64,000 nt of DNA from a phage. The translations under genes were made by a program, and so were the position numbers. Shown one piece after another: positions 29,979 to 51,822 of this stretch (positions within the stretch are counted from its first letter, which is position 1; every line of letters begins with the position of its first letter). The stretch lies in the sequence record OZ346167.1. One strand, written 5' to 3'. The notes beneath the pieces were generated by a model that was not told the origin of the DNA, did not search any database, and saw only the letters and a program-made list of their open reading frames with translations.

Positions 29979-30545
29979 TCAAGATAGTTTTGCAAACTCT
30001 CCGTGGAGTTTAATAGCAGCTTCACAGTAAGCTTTATGGGCTTCTTCAGGTGTGTCATGGTAACCTAAAAACATCTTCTTACCTTTATAACTTATCTGTG
30101 CGACCCACTTACCAGACTTCTTCTTCAGGCTTACACCCTTATAGCCTGATTTATTGGTGGATAGTTTGCTTTTATTCCAAGCACTTTGGTAGTCATATGC
30201 TTCTCTTAAGTTTACAATCCTGTTATCAAGGGAGTCTCCATTAATATGGTCAATAACACCTTTCGGCAACCTACCATACATGTACAGCCATGCGAGTCTG
30301 TGTGCTTTATGTGCTTTCTTGTCAAAATAGATAGTAATCTGCTTATGACCAGTTGAGTCAATCTGGATGCTCCCCGCTACCTGTCCTGCGTACTGACTAT
30401 TAAAAACTTTAACAGCCTTTGAGTCGCCCTCTCTACGAAGCCAAGTAAAGACCCCTGTTTCGGGGTCATAGTGTAGTAGTTCCTTTAAACGTTCTTTTGT
30501 AATCATTTTGTCACCATTAATGCACTTCCAACCACGATTTACCAA
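29979..30545 (-). CDS. HNH homing endonuclease with AP2-type DNA-binding domain (free-standing)
   Basis: HNH core HRLAWLYMYG...IDHINGDSLDNRIVNLR; AP2-like GYKGVSLKKKSGKWVAQISYKGKKMFLGYHDTPEEAHKAY; overlaps 3' end of polymerase exon 2; paralog of 40353-40868. Confidence 0.8.
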   Translation of the reverse strand: MVNRGWKCINGDKMITKERLKELLHYDPETGVFTWLRREGDSKAVKVFNSQYAGQVAGSIQIDSTGHKQITIYFDKKAHKAHRLAWLYMYGRLPKGVIDHINGDSLDNRIVNLREAYDYQSAWNKSKLSTNKSGYKGVSLKKKSGKWVAQISYKGKKMFLGYHDTPEEAHKAYCEAAIKLHGEFAKLS

Positions 30546-31076: not shown

Positions 31077-31347
31077 CTGGTCAATACACTCGCAAGGTGT
31101 ACCAGTTCTCTTATGAACTTCTCCGCATTTCTACGGAGTGTCGGACTATATCACGTAGTAGTAATACTACCGTTGCACTTGGGAATGGTCATTGGCTTAC
31201 CACCCTACTCTACTCAGTTCATACGTTAAGTATGCTTTTCGATAGTCTCTGAACGTTCCTCTTAAGAGGCTTCGCTGCTGATTACCATATCTTTACAGAC
31301 TTAGGCTTCCAGCAATTCACAACGTTTTACATGCGCCACTGACGCAT
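31077..31347 (-). mobile_element. group I intron (ORF-less) in DNA polymerase motif B
   Basis: on the transcribed strand the conserved core elements P (AAUUGCUGGAAG), Q (AAUCAGCAGCG), R (GUUCAGAGACUA; + coords 31243-31252) and S (GAUAUAGUCC; 31143-31151) occur in canonical order; ends in G; splits polymerase motif B. Confidence 0.75.
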
Positions 31348-33514
31348 AAATGCCATTTTTGGCTTTCTTACGACCTTTTGTAATCTCGTGGAGAAGTTCC
31401 TCATCCTGTGTCTCCCTACAACGAACAATATCTTCTTCCTTGTTCAGACCAAAGTAAATACTGTTCAGTGTATGCGCATCAGTCCCTGTGTAGACTTCAT
31501 AGAGGTCGTTCTCAGCATCATAACGAAGATACTTGTCAGTTTCTGGATTAAGGTGCTTATCAAGATGTTTGCAATAATATCTCCCATCTTCTTGCTTGGT
31601 AAATTCTACTGACTCTTTACCTTCAGTTACTGCTTTAGTGAACTCTTTATCACCCATAAAGTTACACAGTAAAACAAGCTGTGCAGAGTTCTGGTCAACA
31701 GAAACAATGTTAGTCCCCTCTTCACAAATCCACACTGCCCTCATAGGTGCTCCATAGACAGCAGCACCAGACGGTACGTTTACAATACCATATTGTGTCA
31801 TACGTCCAGTTGAAGTACCAAACACCATTGCACCAGCACTAAGGCGACCATCAGGACGAATCTGGTTCAACCAACCTTTTTCATCATCCTTTGAGTTCTC
31901 AATAGTTCTGCGTCGGTGCATCAAAGTATAGTACTTAGCAATCTTCTGTCCAAGCTCACCTTCAATCGTATCATAAGATGATTCAGTAAGTTTTGGTGAA
32001 GTACGGATTAAGCAAGGCTCAAGCAAGTCTGTGTATTTCTTCACAGACCAGTTATGCTCAATGTACTGTACACCTTCATGTTCAACATAACTCAAACCAC
32101 ACCGCTCAACCATTTCCTGCCACTTAGGATGCTTTGTAATCATCTTTTTATTGTCTTTGAAACGACAAACTTTGACAGGGCGACCATCTGAGTCTTTCTT
32201 GTAATTCCAGTCATCTGGAATCCAACCAACTGATTTCAAGTAGTCTTTAACAACTGCTACCTGAGTCATACGAGAAACTTCAAACTCAATTGGTGTATAT
32301 GGTGCATCAATCAAACCTGTGTAGCGACTTGACTCAAGTTCAAAGTGATTAACAACGTGGCTGTTATAGTACTTCACAGTTTTGACTGTTTTTACTGGCT
32401 TCCAGTCTTTGCATTTCTTACCAATCTTTGCGTTCAACTCATTGCAAATTGCACGAGCATCCTTCATTGCTACAAATCCCTCTTTGTACTCTTCACCAGT
32501 TACAGAGTTGGTTGGTGTATAGCAATTTCTCTTTTCAATGTTAAAAATCTTTGTAGTTGGCTTACCAAATGGCTTGATTTCATATGTCTGCATCTCACCG
32601 TTACGTACCTGCTGACGATACTTTGTCTTAGGGTACTTGGTAATCCTCTTCAGCCCATCTGCATGACCGAATGCTTCAACATATTCATTCCAAGCTTTTG
32701 CAAACTCTTCTCCAGTAACTTTACCTTTGGTCTTAATAGTTGGAGGAAGATGTGGTTCAACCTCTGAAGCAAGCTCATTAGTCAACTTGTCAAGTTCCTT
32801 TACATGGAACTCCATAAGCTCTTTATCAGCTTTCCAACCATTGATAGCTTGCTGGCTCATCCAGAAAGATGTTTCTTTAGCTCGCATGTAGGTTTCATAA
32901 GTGTCTATGCCACACTTCTTAAGCTTGAGATACTCGTTATCAAGTGCCCGTTTAGTTTTGGCGTTAATACGGATATCTTCTACGACACGAGTGAAGATTT
33001 CTGCATTCCACACACCCCAATGCTCAATCTCTGGCTTACGAACACCAACACGAGCACCCCATGCAGCCAAACCATGAGCACCTTTATAACCCTTTGGAGT
33101 TGGCCTATCCATCCACTGAACACGAGACTGGATAAGAGAATCCTGAAAGAAATTACCCCACGGCTTACATTTTGGATTATCAAAGTTCCATAAATCAGGT
33201 GCAATGTGATTGAAAACCCACCAGTCATAACCGAGACCATTATGGATGCAAAGACGTTTTGCCTTTAACGCAAATTCAACACCTTCACGTAAACCACCTT
33301 TGATGTACTTAGTGTACTTGTGACCGAGGATAGGCTCATCTGTAAAGACCCATACAGGTGGCTCTTCATCGTCAGATTTATAGTCTGCAAAGGCCATTAC
33401 GTGAACTTTAGTGAACTCAAGGAGTAAACCATCAGTTTCTGTATCACCAACCAAATGTAAGTTTTTAAAATCTACGTTTTCCATTTTTACTCCCTCTAAA
33501 ATCATTAACCTCAT
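31348..33514 (-). CDS. DNA polymerase (family A, T7 gp5-like), exon 1 (3'-5' exonuclease and most of polymerase domain)
   Basis: motif A-like IVSVDQNSAQL and start of motif B RKKAKNGIY; continuous ORF ends in a stop 16 codons into the intron. Confidence 0.8.
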
Positions 33515-47111: not shown

Positions 47112-47132
47112 GGTCTCTTCGGAGACCTTTTT
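47112..47132 (+). terminator. rho-independent terminator (UUCG tetraloop)
   Basis: GGTCTC-TTCG-GAGACC followed by TTTTT. Confidence 0.6.
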
Positions 47133-47151: not shown

Positions 47152-48348
47152 ATGAACAAAGTACAGATTATTAAAAAGAACGGCTCACTTGAAGAACCTG
47201 ATATCAAAAAAGTTTTAGCAGCAGTCACAAAGTCAGCTAATAGGGTTGGGTATAAAGAACTCCCACCAGATGTTACCCAAGCTCTTGAGTCAGCATTTAT
47301 GAGGATTCTGGTAAAATCCACTAAGCAGAATAATTTACTCATTTCAGTAAATGATATTCACAGTATTGTTGAGGGTGCTTTGGCAGAAGTCAATCACGAG
47401 ATTTATGAGTCTTACTCAACATATAGAAATTACCGTAAAGAAGTTGCTCAAAATTGGGATGAACTCTACCAGAAGACCAAAGATACACTCTTCTTAGGTG
47501 ACAGAGAGAATGCTAACTTTGACAGCAGTTTAATTTCTACAAAAGGTTCAATTATTCGTGGTTATCTGACTAAAGAAATCTTTAAACAGTACCATTTAAC
47601 ACCAGAGGAACTTGAAGCCATTGAAAAAGGGTTTATCTATATCCATGATTTAAGAGACCTAATTTTTGGTGGTATCAACTGTTGCCTGTTTGACATTGGT
47701 AAAGTCCTGAAAGGCGGCTTTGAAATGTCTGGCATCGAATATTGTGAACCAAAGTCTGTACTGTCGGCCTTACAGGTTATTGGTGACGTAGTTCTTTCAG
47801 CAACTGCACAGCAATTTGGTGGTTTTACTTTAGCAGAGATTGATAAGGTACTTGTACCGTATGCTAAGAAGTCTCTACGCTATCATGCTGAGAAAGCAGC
47901 ATCTTATGGTATTCCTAAAGAACATTACCACAATTATGTCATGGAGCAGCTACAGATTGAACTGACTCAAGGTTTCCAGTCACTTGAAATGAAGCTAAAT
48001 ACTGTACCTTGTAGTCGTGGGGATTTTGCATTCACAACTTTGACATTCGGGTTACTTGACTCAGATATGTCCAATGAAGATAACCGACTGCAATATATGA
48101 TTGCAAGTACTCTCCTAGATGTTCGTATGAATGGACAAGGTAAGAGCAAGAAGCCTGTTGTATTCCCTAAACTGGTTTATATCTATGACCAGAAGAGACA
48201 CGATGAGAATATCTGTCAAGGACACCTGTACAGTAAAGCCATTGAGTGTTGCTCTAAAGCAATGTATCCAGATTTCTTAAGTGTATCTGGTCATGGTGCT
48301 GTAGCAGAAGCTTTTGAGCGTTCTGGCAAGGTAATTTCGCCGATGGGT
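47152..48348 (+). CDS. nrdD: anaerobic ribonucleotide reductase (class III), exon 1
   Basis: ATP-cone-like N-terminus; ORF ends ...KVISPMG then stop at 48349-48351, exactly where exon 2 resumes with CRAFLSPY. Confidence 0.8.
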
Positions 48349-49090
48349 TAACAGGCTCTATAGCTCATCTAAAACGTGCCTAAACAGGGAAACTCTACAG
48401 GTGTAGACAATCCTGTGCTAAATGATGTACGATGTAAGAAACTATACAATATAGGAGTCTTACATGCCAAACTATCACGTCACTGAAGATGGAAAAGTCT
48501 TTAGGGAAAATGGTGTAGAGCTTACGCAGTGGAAATCCAACACTGGGTATATGAAAGTGAGGTTTTACGGTAAGAAGAATCGTGACATGTATGTCCACAG
48601 GTTAGTTGCTGAGAAATATGTACCTAACCCGAATAATCTTCCAATTGTAAAACATAAGGACGATAACAAACTAAATAACCACGCATCTAACTTAGAATGG
48701 GGTACTCATTCTGAGAATGCTAAAGAGGGTTATGAGAACGGATGTTACAAGTTCCACAAGCGTTCATATGCCGTGAAAGCCACACACAAAGTGACAAAGG
48801 AAGTTATTGTTACTAAGTCAATACGAGAGTTGTCCAATATACTTGGACACAATCGCAAGACCATCTCTTCAATATTGAAGGGTGTAAAAGAGCATAATAA
48901 CTTCGAATATGAGTTTGAATACATCTAAATGCCGAACGACTAACCGTGATGAATGTAGCGGTGTAGGGTCAAGCGACTCGAAATGGTACGCTACTTAGAA
49001 ATAAGTAGAAGATATAGTCTGGACTTACTGGCGACAGTAAGCAGCTTGAATAAAGCGGGGTAAGCTTAGCGAACTTACCTGAACAACAAG
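48349..49090 (+). mobile_element. group I intron in nrdD carrying an HNH endonuclease ORF
   Basis: follows exon-terminal U, ends in G; P4-like pairing CCUAAACAGGG / AAUCCUGUG; R-like GAACGACUAA (48934-48943) and S-like AAGAUAUAGUC (49010-49019); internal ORF 48464-48928. Confidence 0.75.
48464..48928 (+). CDS. intron-encoded HNH homing endonuclease
   Basis: HNH core HRLVAEKYVPNPNNLPIVKHKDDNKLNNHASNLEW; located inside the nrdD intron. Confidence 0.75.
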   Translation: MPNYHVTEDGKVFRENGVELTQWKSNTGYMKVRFYGKKNRDMYVHRLVAEKYVPNPNNLPIVKHKDDNKLNNHASNLEWGTHSENAKEGYENGCYKFHKRSYAVKATHKVTKEVIVTKSIRELSNILGHNRKTISSILKGVKEHNNFEYEFEYI

Positions 49091-50038
49091 TGTAGAGCGT
49101 TTTTATCACCATACCATAACGAATATGGTGAAGAGTTTTATGTAGGTCGTGCTAACATTGGTGCTGTATCTTTGAACTTACCAATGATTTACCAGTATTC
49201 TAAAGAGAATGGCTTAGATTTCTGGAAAGAGCTTGATAAGTACCTAGAAATGATTCGCAGCTTCCACAAGAAACGTTACGAAATGATTGCTAATATGCCA
49301 GCAAGTTCTAACCCTCTTGCATTCACACAGGGTGGTCTGTACAAAGGGAATAAGAAACCTACTGACAAGGTTGGCTGGGATATCGTGAAGTCCTTCACAG
49401 CTTCTTTTGGGGTTACTGCGCTTGATGAGCTATCTGTTCTTGCTGAAGGTAAACGACTTCATGAAGTTGGAAGCTGTAGTTTTGCATATGATGTTCTGGA
49501 ATATATCAACATGAAGACTGAAGAGTTTAAAAATGAAGATGGCTTCTTATATGCAGTCTATGGCACTCCAGCAGAATCACTTTGTGGAACTCAGCTAAAA
49601 CAGTTCAGAGATATGTTTGGCGTTATCAAAGGCGTTTCTGACAAGGAATACTTTACAAACAGTTTCCATATGAATGTTGCAGCAGATATTACACCATTTG
49701 AGAAGCAGGACTTAGAAGAACCCTTCTTCCATATCTGTAGAGGCGGCAGAATCCAGTATGTAAGAGTGGCTAACCCAGAAAACTTATCAGCACTTAAGAG
49801 TTGTATTACAAGAGGGATGTTGAAAGGTTTCTATCAGGGACTTAACTTTGACTTAGCAATCTGTGAACATTGTGGTAACAGACCAAAGGCTGATGTTGAA
49901 GAATGTGAGGTTTGTCATTCACACGATATCTCTGTGATTAACAGGGTGTGCGGATATTTGGGATGGACTAAGATTAAAGGTGAATCCCGAATGAATGATG
50001 CAAAAATCGCTGAGATTCGTGACAGAATTTCTATGTAA
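49091..50038 (+). CDS. nrdD: anaerobic ribonucleotide reductase (class III), exon 2
   Basis: begins CRAFLSPY... and ends with glycyl-radical motif RVCGYLG; in-frame stop just upstream at 49088-49090. Confidence 0.8.
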   Translation, partial: CRAFLSPYHNEYGEEFYVGRANIGAVSLNLPMIYQYSKENGLDFWKELDKYLEMIRSFHKKRYEMIANMPASSNPLAFTQGGLYKGNKKPTDKVGWDIVKSFTASFGVTALDELSVLAEGKRLHEVGSCSFAYDVLEYINMKTEEFKNEDGFLYAVYGTPAESLCGTQLKQFRDMFGVIKGVSDKEYFTNSFHMNVAADITPFEKQDLEEPFFHICRGGRIQYVRVANPENLSALKSCITRGMLKGFYQGLNFDLAICEHCGNRPKADVEECEVCHSHDISVINRVCGYLGWTKIKGESRMNDAKIAEIRDRISM

Positions 50039-50049
50039 AACTTGACAAG

Positions 50050-50436
50050 GTGATGTGGGTCTTGATAGGCTTACATCACCTTTTTATTTGGAGTTACATT
50101 ATGGACTTGTGGCTTTATGTAGCAGTTTGTGGGATTGTATGTCTGATAATCTTATTTATTCTTGGAATAATGCGATTTAGAGACATCATACAGTCAGATT
50201 TTTTGCCTGAGTTTACCATGATGGTTGGAGTTATTGCACTTTGTGTCTTGGCGGTGTTCTATTCATACAAAACTGTGATATGGATGAAGGCAAACAATTG
50301 TGTAAAAACTCATCAACATCGTGAGGTTACTTATTTTGTGAGTGTACTTAGTGGGAATACCACTGTACTTGTCCCACAAACTTCTGTAGAGTATCTTTAC
50401 ACATGTGATAATGGTAAAACTATATGGTGGAATTAA
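50050..50436 (+). CDS. integral membrane protein
   Basis: 128 aa with 2-3 hydrophobic helices. Confidence 0.35.
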   Translation: MMWVLIGLHHLFIWSYIMDLWLYVAVCGIVCLIILFILGIMRFRDIIQSDFLPEFTMMVGVIALCVLAVFYSYKTVIWMKANNCVKTHQHREVTYFVSVLSGNTTVLVPQTSVEYLYTCDNGKTIWWN

Positions 50437-51336: not shown

Positions 51337-51822
51337 ATGAATTACATGGAGATTCGACCATTTGATACAGCTAATGGTGAAGGGGTTCGTGTAAGCCTCT
51401 TCGTAGCTGGCTGTAAACATCACTGTGAAGGCTGCTTTAACAGGGAGTCTTGGAAGTTTAATGCTGGTAAAGTGTTCACTTATGCAAACCTCTGCGGCAT
51501 CATTAAGTTAATGGATGATGAGGCCATCGGTGGGTTGTCGATACTTGGTGGAGAACCTCTGGATGATAGAAATATTCAAGAGGTTACCAATATATGTAAA
51601 CGTATTAAAACTGTTTACCCAGAGAAGTCTATCTGGCTCTGGACAGGTTTTCAGTTACACGAAAAAATTCACCTAGATGTGATGAAATATGTTGACGTGG
51701 TGATTGATGGTAAGTATGATTCATCTAAACCAACAGTTAAGCCATATCGTGGTTCTGATAACCAAAACCTATGGAGAAAAGAGTATGGGTGGCAAGGTGA
51801 TTGTCAGTGGAGAGCCGAGTAA
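51337..51822 (+). CDS. nrdG: anaerobic ribonucleotide reductase activating protein (radical SAM)
   Basis: CKHHCEGC fits the CxxxCxxC radical-SAM cluster motif; ~160 aa; same block as nrdD. Confidence 0.7.
   Translation: MNYMEIRPFDTANGEGVRVSLFVAGCKHHCEGCFNRESWKFNAGKVFTYANLCGIIKLMDDEAIGGLSILGGEPLDDRNIQEVTNICKRIKTVYPEKSIWLWTGFQLHEKIHLDVMKYVDVVIDGKYDSSKPTVKPYRGSDNQNLWRKEYGWQGDCQWRAE

Follow-up and report, generated by a model that had tools for sequence, protein, structure and literature searches.

The window analysed in the current study is a 64,000-nt stretch of phage DNA (sequence record OZ346167.1), and it carries a ribonucleotide reductase locus with the gene order nrdA, nrdB, glutaredoxin, nrdD and nrdG. 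The nrdD region (47152-50038) was 97.7% identical to that of Salmonella phage FSL SP-010 and 95-97% identical to that of many Felixounavirus phages, and the source genome is assigned to a Felixounavirus (Felix O1-like) phage. The nrdG gene is intact at 51337-51822, downstream of nrdD. The nrdD gene itself, which encodes the anaerobic ribonucleotide reductase, is interrupted, and the following features were found:

47152-48348, plus strand: nrdD exon 1, 399 codons, with the ATP-cone and the N-terminal half of NrdD (ORF list, Pfam, intronless alleles)
48349-49090, plus strand: group I intron of 742 nt, assigned to a td-like subgroup IA2 without P2; it begins with UAA in the reading frame of exon 1 and ends in G
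48432-48465, plus strand: hairpin AUGUAAGA...UCUUACAU over a Shine-Dalgarno (SD) sequence, inner stem CUAUA/UAUAG (local folds)
48464-48928, plus strand: predicted intron-encoded HNH endonuclease, I-HmuI-like, 154 aa, 465 nt (Pfam, PDB 1U3E, PHROG 59, dN/dS, orthologue alignment)
49091-50038, plus strand: nrdD exon 2, whose first codon is the Cys equivalent to Cys290 of T4 NrdD (CRAFL...), with the glycyl-radical motif RVCGYLG
49093-49144, plus strand: exon 2 difference tract (+3 to +54), with 10 fixed differences between intron-containing and intronless alleles

The ORF of exon 1 (47152-48351) ends in ...KVISPMG followed by TAA, and in Pfam it matched the ATP-cone and positions 1-250 of the NRDD profile; exon 2 matched positions 264-560 of the same profile and Gly_radical. 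Fusion of 48348 to 49091 yielded a single ORF of 714 aa, which reads ...SPMG/CRAFLSPYHNEYGEEFYVGRANIG... across the junction and carries ...RVCGYLG... at its C-terminus, the predicted spliced junction reading CCGAUGGGU-UGUAGAGCG. The spliced NrdD aligned without a break across the PMG/CRAFL junction with a solved structure, PDB 9d3x (PMGCR(A/S)FL). T4 NrdD has its SPMGCRSFL cysteine at residue 290 and its CGYLG glycine at residue 580. An earlier note on this DNA had claimed that nrdD breaks off after ...KVISPMG, resumes 742 nt later and ends with RVCGYLG, and that joining the parts restores the full-length frame; both claims were borne out at 48348/49091.

The boundaries of the intron were fixed independently, because in the intronless Felixounavirus alleles FO1a and E9 CCGATGGGT is directly followed by TGCAGAGC, with 0 nt between the exons. 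Felix O1 itself has an intronless allele, in agreement with the absence of introns stated in its genome paper (PMC3185647). The identical junction holds a 742-nt insert in Meda, UAB_69 and BPS17S6, and ORF-less inserts of 316 nt (EC6 and L27) or 292 nt (RPN213). In the ORF-less alleles the loop alone is deleted and the same core is kept; 142 codons (426 nt) are removed in frame, leaving MPNNFEYEFEYI before the stop codon, and a larger deletion also occurs. The ORF-less form is a decayed derivative rather than the ancestor.

The helices of the ribozyme were drawn by direct inspection and their complementarity was checked by script. The elements, all on the plus strand, are as follows:

48342-48369, plus strand: P1, 9 bp, GAUGGGU/UA (48342-48350) with the guide UAGCUCAUC (48361-48369) (complementarity check)
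48355-48362, plus strand: P10 guide strand GCUCUAUA, pairing over 8 bp with UGUAGAGC, the first 8 nt of exon 2 (49091-49098) (complementarity check)
48375-48990, plus strand: long-range P3, CGUGCC (48375-48380) with GGUACG (48985-48990); compensatory changes in 4/6 pairs (MFE fold, RNAalifold)
48384-48416, plus strand: P4, ACAGGG (48384-48389) with UCCUGU (48411-48416) (Rfam partial match, folds, covariation)
48394-48407, plus strand: P5, UCUAC (48394-48398) with GUAGA (48403-48407) (folds, covariation)
48417-48932, plus strand: P6, GC (48417-48418) with GC (48931-48932) (folds, covariation)
48424-48925, plus strand: P6a, GAUGUA (48424-48429) with UACAUC (48920-48925), HNH ORF in the loop; compensatory changes in 5/6 pairs
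48938-49019, plus strand: P7 pseudoknot, GACUA (48938-48942) with UAGUC (49015-49019), enclosing P7.1, P7.2, the 3' strand of P3, P8 and J8/7
48943-48962, plus strand: P7.1, ACCGU (48943-48947) with GCGGU (48958-48962); covaries
48966-48979, plus strand: P7.2, GGGUC (48966-48970) with GACUC (48975-48979)
48991-49008, plus strand: P8, CUACUUA (48991-48997) with UAAGUAG (49002-49008), GAAA loop; covaries
49009-49019, plus strand: J8/7 AAGAUAUAGUC, inside the P7 region; the element spans the 3' strand of P7
49024-49041, plus strand: P9, CUUACUG (49024-49030) with CAGUAAG (49035-49041), GCGA loop (folds, covariation)
49044-49056, plus strand: P9.1, GCUU (49044-49047) with AAGC (49053-49056) (folds, covariation)
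49058-49080, plus strand: P9.2, GGGUAAG (49058-49064) with CUUACCU (49074-49080) (folds, covariation)
49090, plus strand: terminal G (omega-G) (sequence, intronless alleles)

Exon 1 ends in U (48348) and the intron in G (49090), as had been noticed from the letters alone. The exon-terminal U forms the wobble pair of P1 at the 5' splice site (U48348·G48363), and the P1 guide covaries with the exon sequence among homologues. The spacer between P1 and P3 consists of UAAAA only, and P2 is absent. The region of P4 and P5 (48384-48416) represents the classical P and Q elements, with an Rfam partial match to model positions 60-138, and the R/S elements are the P7 strands GACUA (48938-48942) and AAGAUAUAGUC (49009-49019). 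The criterion for subgroup IA2, as reportedly set out by Michel and Westhof in 1990, is a pair of extra hairpins, P7.1 and P7.2, located after the 5' strand of P7 and before the 3' strand of P3. Both helices are present here (48943-48962 and 48966-48979), with 65-71% identity to the T4 td intron, from which this intron differs in the absence of P2. A predicted minus-strand terminator at 49059-49079 is nothing other than the P9.2 hairpin.

Against the Rfam group I model (RF00028, gathering score 50 bits), the intron in the window gave two partial matches of 33.1 and 15.5 bits on either side of the ORF. The window copy falls below the gathering threshold because the 465-nt ORF occupies the P6a loop; a scan of the whole window at that threshold missed it, the sole match being the intron of the DNA-polymerase gene. 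Rfam support comes instead from the natural ORF-less alleles, which have essentially the same core and scored 53.6 (EC6), 53.3 (L27) and 60.4 bits (RPN213), with E-values of about 1e-11 to 1e-13. Other Rfam matches nearby (CRISPR-DR65, snoR101, U1A_PIE; E = 1.8-6.6) were due to chance. The DNA-polymerase intron, at 31121-31404 on the minus strand, scored 64.2 bits, and the claim that the window holds a second group I intron is upheld.

When the ORF was deleted as in EC6, the minimum free energy (MFE) fold of the intron had -83.4 kcal/mol (z = -3.7) and recovered P3, P4, P5, P6, P6a, P7.1, P7.2, P8, P9, P9.1 and P9.2 unaided. Covariation was assessed in an alignment of seven introns with trimmed P6a loops (the window, RPN213, ECGD1, 241Ecol014PP, Vibrio phage F98, the terminase intron of Aeromonas phage 2L372D, and T4 td). 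RNAalifold on these homologues gave the same helices as the MFE fold, the long-range P3 included. With the P7 pseudoknot added, 96.3% of the cells in the alignment pair and 31 of the 66 pairs show compensatory changes, a level reached by 0/500 shuffles; in slid controls 32-42% of the cells paired. P7 is invariant in 7/7 homologues and is therefore uninformative for covariation. The P4-like pairing and the R/S-like elements that had been proposed are real, because the MFE fold, Rfam, RNAalifold and the covariation tests all support the structure. Identification of the insert as a group I intron is likewise sustained by P1, P10 and the terminal G, by the Rfam scores of the ORF-less alleles, by covariation, and by exact excision as seen in the intronless alleles.

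The ORF in the P6a loop (48464-48928) had been called an HNH endonuclease, and database comparison supported this. It matched PF13392 (HNH_3) with 41.2 bits (cut-off 24.8, E = 1.3e-10) and PHROG 59, and the closest solved protein was I-HmuI (PDB 1U3E; E = 3.7e-9), with residues 3-152 of 154 aligned to 12-169 of 174 at approximately 30% identity. I-HmuI is also encoded by a phage group I intron, that of the DNA-polymerase gene of Bacillus phage SPO1; target gene and host differ from those seen here. I-HmuI acts as a strand-specific nickase (PMC2988022). The catalytic His and both Asn are kept: the H-N-N motif H64, N76 and N85 aligns with H75, N87 and N96 of I-HmuI and is invariant in five orthologues. 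At the position of I-HmuI D74, however, the protein has K63, and the orthologues have K or C, so that the acidic ligand is missing. According to Shen et al. in 2004, D74 is said to be the acidic metal ligand that precedes the catalytic His. The catalytic geometry may differ, because the equivalent of D74 is Lys; since a D74-type residue is not universal in HNH enzymes, K63 weakens the case for I-HmuI-like chemistry and not for membership in the HNH family.

The HNH ORF is under purifying selection. Its dN/dS ratio was 0.07 in comparison with Meda and 0.04 in comparison with both UAB_69 and BPS17S6, over dS values of up to 0.70, and in the same comparisons the 3' part of the ribozyme (162 nt) showed 0-3 differences. 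These values indicate that protein and RNA core alike are strongly constrained. A scan with shuffled controls did not support a dedicated promoter for the ORF (6 sigma-70-like sites, 11.2 expected).

The hairpin at 48432-48465 encloses the Shine-Dalgarno sequence AGGAG (48453-48457) of this ORF and the first two bases of its start codon. Its outer stem is kept in other Felix-type variants, and in arall and 241Ecol014PP different but analogous SD-pairing hairpins fold. Hairpins that sequester the SD of intron ORFs have precedents in T4 (PMC2988022), and by this analogy the hairpin is predicted to act as a translational repressor of the HNH ORF.

Among characterised ribozymes, the T4 td intron, which belongs to group IA2 and encodes I-TevI, was the closest one found. 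Identity was about 71% over the 3' 160 nt and 65.5% over the trimmed core, and the matches listed for T4-like records in a distant-mode similarity search lie in the td intron. The two introns share their helices, including P7.1/P7.2 and P9.1/P9.2, the location of the ORF in the P6a loop, a 5' exon that ends in GGGU, and an in-frame UAA as first intron codon. They differ in the host gene (td), in the enzyme, which in T4 td is the GIY-YIG protein I-TevI instead of an HNH protein, and in the P2 hairpin, which td possesses.

The earlier note had drawn a parallel to the nrdD intron of T4-like phages. This was upheld as far as the host gene is concerned: the T4 nrdD (sunY) intron, which is mobile (PMC2988022), also lies in nrdD and belongs to group IA. 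Its insertion point follows nt 538 of nrdD (...AFQAYE), approximately 110 codons upstream of Cys290 and thus at a different site. Its product is the GIY-YIG enzyme I-TevII, with the ORF at the 3' end of the intron (gene nt 774-1550 within the intron at 539-1571, i.e. intron nt 236-1012 of 1033), unlike the Felixounavirus intron with its HNH protein in P6a. The T4 nrdD intron was rejected as a homologue since insertion site, enzyme family and ORF position all differ; the ribozyme is related to that of T4 td.

The identical nrdD site, ...MG/CR(S/A)(F/L)L..., was found to be occupied in Justusliebigvirus (ECGD1, arall), in Vequintavirus 241Ecol014PP and in Vibrio phage F98. The introns at this site are homologous ribozymes without P2, with a core identity of 68-72%. 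Those of arall, 241Ecol014PP and F98 carry orthologous HNH ORFs (41-50% identity) in the same P6a loop, which extend through P6, J6/7 and P7 (ending in ...EMPND), whereas the Felix-type ORF ends five codons earlier. The ECGD1 intron is a natural ORF-less form, and its annotation joins the exons. Within the genus, Meda and other Felixounavirus records contain the same element at 92-99.5% identity.

The distribution of the intron among Felixounavirus phages is patchy. Pooled similarity searches, which give rough counts, covered about 218 records, with the ORF-containing intron in approximately 61, the ORF-less form in approximately 35 (approximately 96 intron-bearing records in all) and an intronless allele in approximately 122. 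ORF-less derivatives are thus frequent, making up about a third of intron-bearing genomes, and the endonuclease gene is often lost.

Comparison of seven intron-containing with two intronless alleles, a small sample, revealed 10 fixed differences within exon 2 positions +3 to +54. The next stretch, +55 to +120, had none, and the 90 nt upstream had one. Nine of the 10 are at synonymous third-codon positions; the tenth, at +34, alters residue 12 (N versus Y/H/D). P10 is improved by the difference at +3 (U versus C). We interpret the tract as a probable co-conversion tract, a target region of the endonuclease, or both. Megablast queries of 56 nt found the two exon 2 haplotypes in at least 55 and at least 26 records, which are lower bounds given the short queries. 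In exon 1, the window differs from the intronless allele FO1a at 31 of 1200 nt and from the intron-containing allele EC6 at 69 of 1200 nt. The exon 2 tract and this mismatch between intron state and exon 1 form a mosaic, such as homing with short co-conversion tracts produces, and the patchy distribution together with the flanking tract would fit recent homing of the intron.

Taken from sequence comparison, the element is very probably a mobile, self-splicing, T4-td-like IA2 group I intron without P2, inserted in the nrdD of Felix O1-like phages between the Gly and Cys codons of PMGCR. We infer the splicing chemistry, the activity and target of the enzyme, and the translational control as follows. 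A ribosome on exon 1 would halt at UAA, the first intron codon. The ribozyme would fold with P1, including U48348·G48363, followed by P3 to P9.2, and with the ORF held out in the P6a loop. Exogenous guanosine would attack the 5' splice site, exon 2 would be aligned through P10, and ligation of the exons would occur after G49090. This would restore the 714-aa NrdD, the partner of which would be the NrdG activase encoded downstream. In the precursor RNA, the ribosome-binding site and start codon of the HNH ORF would be sequestered by the hairpin. In a mixed infection the HNH enzyme would nick or cut an intronless nrdD close to where the intron inserts, probably through contacts with the initial ~50 bp of exon 2, and repair templated by the intron-containing genome would copy the intron along with a short part of exon 2.

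The presence of K63 in place of the metal-binding Asp of I-HmuI, and the loss of the ORF in about a third of intron-bearing genomes by the in-frame 426-nt or a larger deletion, could also mean that the ribozyme splices and the HNH protein no longer acts in homing, either because it is inactive or because it has a maturase-like or regulatory role; the intron would then be inherited vertically or by ordinary recombination. We regard this as unlikely. A dN/dS of 0.04-0.07 over dS of up to 0.70 argues against it, as does the invariance of H64, N76 and N85 in same-site orthologues from three other phage groups, which also have K or C in place of K63. The exon 2 tract and the mismatch of intron state with exon 1 fit recent homing instead.

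Much less probable is a split gene without splicing, in which an endonuclease cassette would have cut nrdD in two and two separately translated polypeptides would reassemble. Most GenBank records annotate two NrdD fragments and an HNH gene, and Aeh1 nrdA, split by mobE, provides a precedent for a non-splicing split gene (PMC3653736). In the present nrdD, however, the earliest in-frame start in exon 2 is the TTG at 49172, with none between 49091 and 49172, so that a downstream polypeptide would lack 27 codons, including the CRAFL motif with the Cys290 equivalent. The first codon of exon 2 cannot be translated without splicing, because no start codon precedes 49172; Cys290 of T4 NrdD, its equivalent, is known as the thiyl-radical residue. 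The insert moreover contains a complete ribozyme with covariation, and ORF-less versions of 316 and 292 nt persist at exactly the same boundaries.

The least probable readings, a dead pseudogene or an insertion (intein or recoding site) that would be eliminated from the protein, have nothing specific in their favour beyond the probable aerobic dispensability of nrdD, and can be dismissed, as both exons are intact and conserved in every allele examined, nrdG is intact, and an intein is excluded by the UAA as first codon after exon 1 and by the HNH ORF, which has its own SD and lies in a frame other than that of both exons. With respect to dispensability, T4 nrdD is not needed aerobically, and the description of the host gene as essential in the earlier note was overstated for nrdD.

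Beyond the interpretation of this locus as a homing group I intron, it is possible that the element belongs to an undescribed sub-lineage of td-like IA2 introns, lacking P2 and with an I-HmuI-like HNH ORF in P6a, which would have homed between families to the Gly/Cys(290) site of nrdD and so reached four or more unrelated groups of phages (Felixounavirus, Justusliebigvirus, Vequintavirus and a Vibrio phage). Movement between genes might then have taken place by guide-directed reverse splicing, after which the endonuclease gene would have been exchanged (GIY-YIG in td, HNH in the present intron); the HNH enzymes would use Lys or Cys for the metal-ligand Asp. For the related introns of td and terminase genes, the upstream exon always ends in GGGU, and this common end would point to transposition between genes directed by the guide sequence, i.e. 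reverse splicing. We hold this scenario tentatively, with slightly less than even confidence.

Several elements of these findings are on record. The GenBank entry of Meda annotates the two exons as joined over this 742-nt stretch, and in its genome announcement the insertion is regarded as an intron (PMC6486253). A split nrdD with a homing endonuclease was noted for UAB_Phi87 (PMC4837284), and for the FSL SP phages homing-endonuclease indels were noted as the main difference (PMC3728262). In phage CB7, introns with HNH genes in other ribonucleotide reductase genes were shown by RT-PCR to be spliced (PMC7344957). The literature searched contained neither a ribozyme model nor an assay of splicing or endonuclease activity for the nrdD intron, and a search for Felixounavirus together with group I intron found no paper. 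The element is of a known kind, and the nrdD intron is already annotated in public records; the current understanding of group I introns and homing endonucleases is left unchanged. Modestly new are its assignment to the td-like IA2 introns, the site at the Cys290 equivalent that is common to several phage families, and the series of alleles from empty to full.

For the annotation of Felixounavirus genomes, the junction 48348/49091 permits correct joining of the 714-aa NrdD. The intron adds to the known mobile introns that sit precisely at a catalytic codon, here the equivalent of Cys290 in T4 NrdD. With approximately 218 relatives in three states (empty site, ORF-less and full), the Felixounavirus phages offer a natural series for gain, decay and loss in homing, and for the length of co-conversion tracts.

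Among the introns orthologous to the nrdD intron (loci L007 and L009; L014, phage 241Ecol014PP; L008, Vibrio phage F98), the HNH ORF extends past P6 and J6/7 and across the P7 5' strand and ends in ...EMPND, so that coding sequence and ribozyme core overlap there. In the Felix-type nrdD intron, a single G-to-U change produces a UAA stop codon five codons earlier (window 48917-48943).

ORF-less alleles of the nrdD intron were examined in three Felixounavirus phages (locus coordinates):
EC6 (L002), 1501-1816, ORF-less nrdD intron
L27 (L005), ORF-less nrdD intron
RPN213 (L006), ORF-less nrdD intron
These alleles originated when precisely 426 nt were deleted in frame, leaving a 12-codon mini-ORF (MPNNFEYEFEYI, followed by a stop codon). 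RPN213 has an additional deletion, giving an nrdD intron of 292 nt, and its P9 loop has changed from GCGA to GUGA.

Felixounavirus nrdD or intron sequence (93-98% identity) was also detected in GU169904.1 (Staphylococcus phage SA1) and in MG065664.1 and MG065674.1 (Campylobacter phages A132 and A140). These records, named after Gram-positive or Campylobacter hosts, are probably mixed or mis-assigned assemblies.

The nrdD genes of F98 (L008, 1-3700) and 241Ecol014PP (L014, 33-2962) are split into at least three pieces by at least two insertions, and related td-like IA2 cores were found in other genes and phages (locus coordinates):
F98, ~225-1383, extra group I-like core on the 5' side of the MG|CR intron, with a 309-aa HNH ORF
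241Ecol014PP, ~684-991, extra group I-like core on the 5' side of the MG|CR intron
Aeromonas phage 2L372D (L015), ~1695-1994, td-like IA2 core in the terminase large-subunit gene
The 2L372D intron has GGGU at its 5' exon end, as does the nrdD intron. Aeromonas phage phiA019 (L013) and the phiKZ-like Pseudomonas phage PaZh_1 (L016) carry two further related cores per locus.

The window holds a second group I intron and a free-standing ORF that overlaps exon 2 of the DNA polymerase gene at its 3' end:
31077-31347, minus strand, ORF-less group I intron (predicted length 271 nt) in a T7-like DNA polymerase gene
29979-30545, minus strand, 188-aa ORF with HNH_3 and AP2 domains (Pfam, 56.6 and 46.9 bits)
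The intron, likewise noted in the Meda paper (PMC6486253), matched Rfam with 64.2 bits at 31121-31404 (minus strand). The predicted junction, ...KKAKNGIY|VLFGAGDEK, lies within polymerase motif B, and predicted splicing would give a 908-aa ORF. Depending on the relative, this junction is spanned by 571 nt or ~300 nt, indicating that both intron-containing and intronless alleles are present. The 188-aa ORF is probably a further homing endonuclease beside the intron-bearing gene.

Terminator-like hairpins flank nrdD, suggesting that the gene and its intron form their own transcription unit; the Meda record has terminators annotated at both matching positions:
47112-47127, terminator-like hairpin
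50047-50082, terminator-like hairpin
Directly downstream of nrdD, BPS17S6 carries a MobE-like HNH endonuclease gene (L017, 2998-3342). In the window this position is taken by a small ORF of no relation to that gene (50050-50436), which makes it a further endonuclease slot that varies at the nrdD locus.
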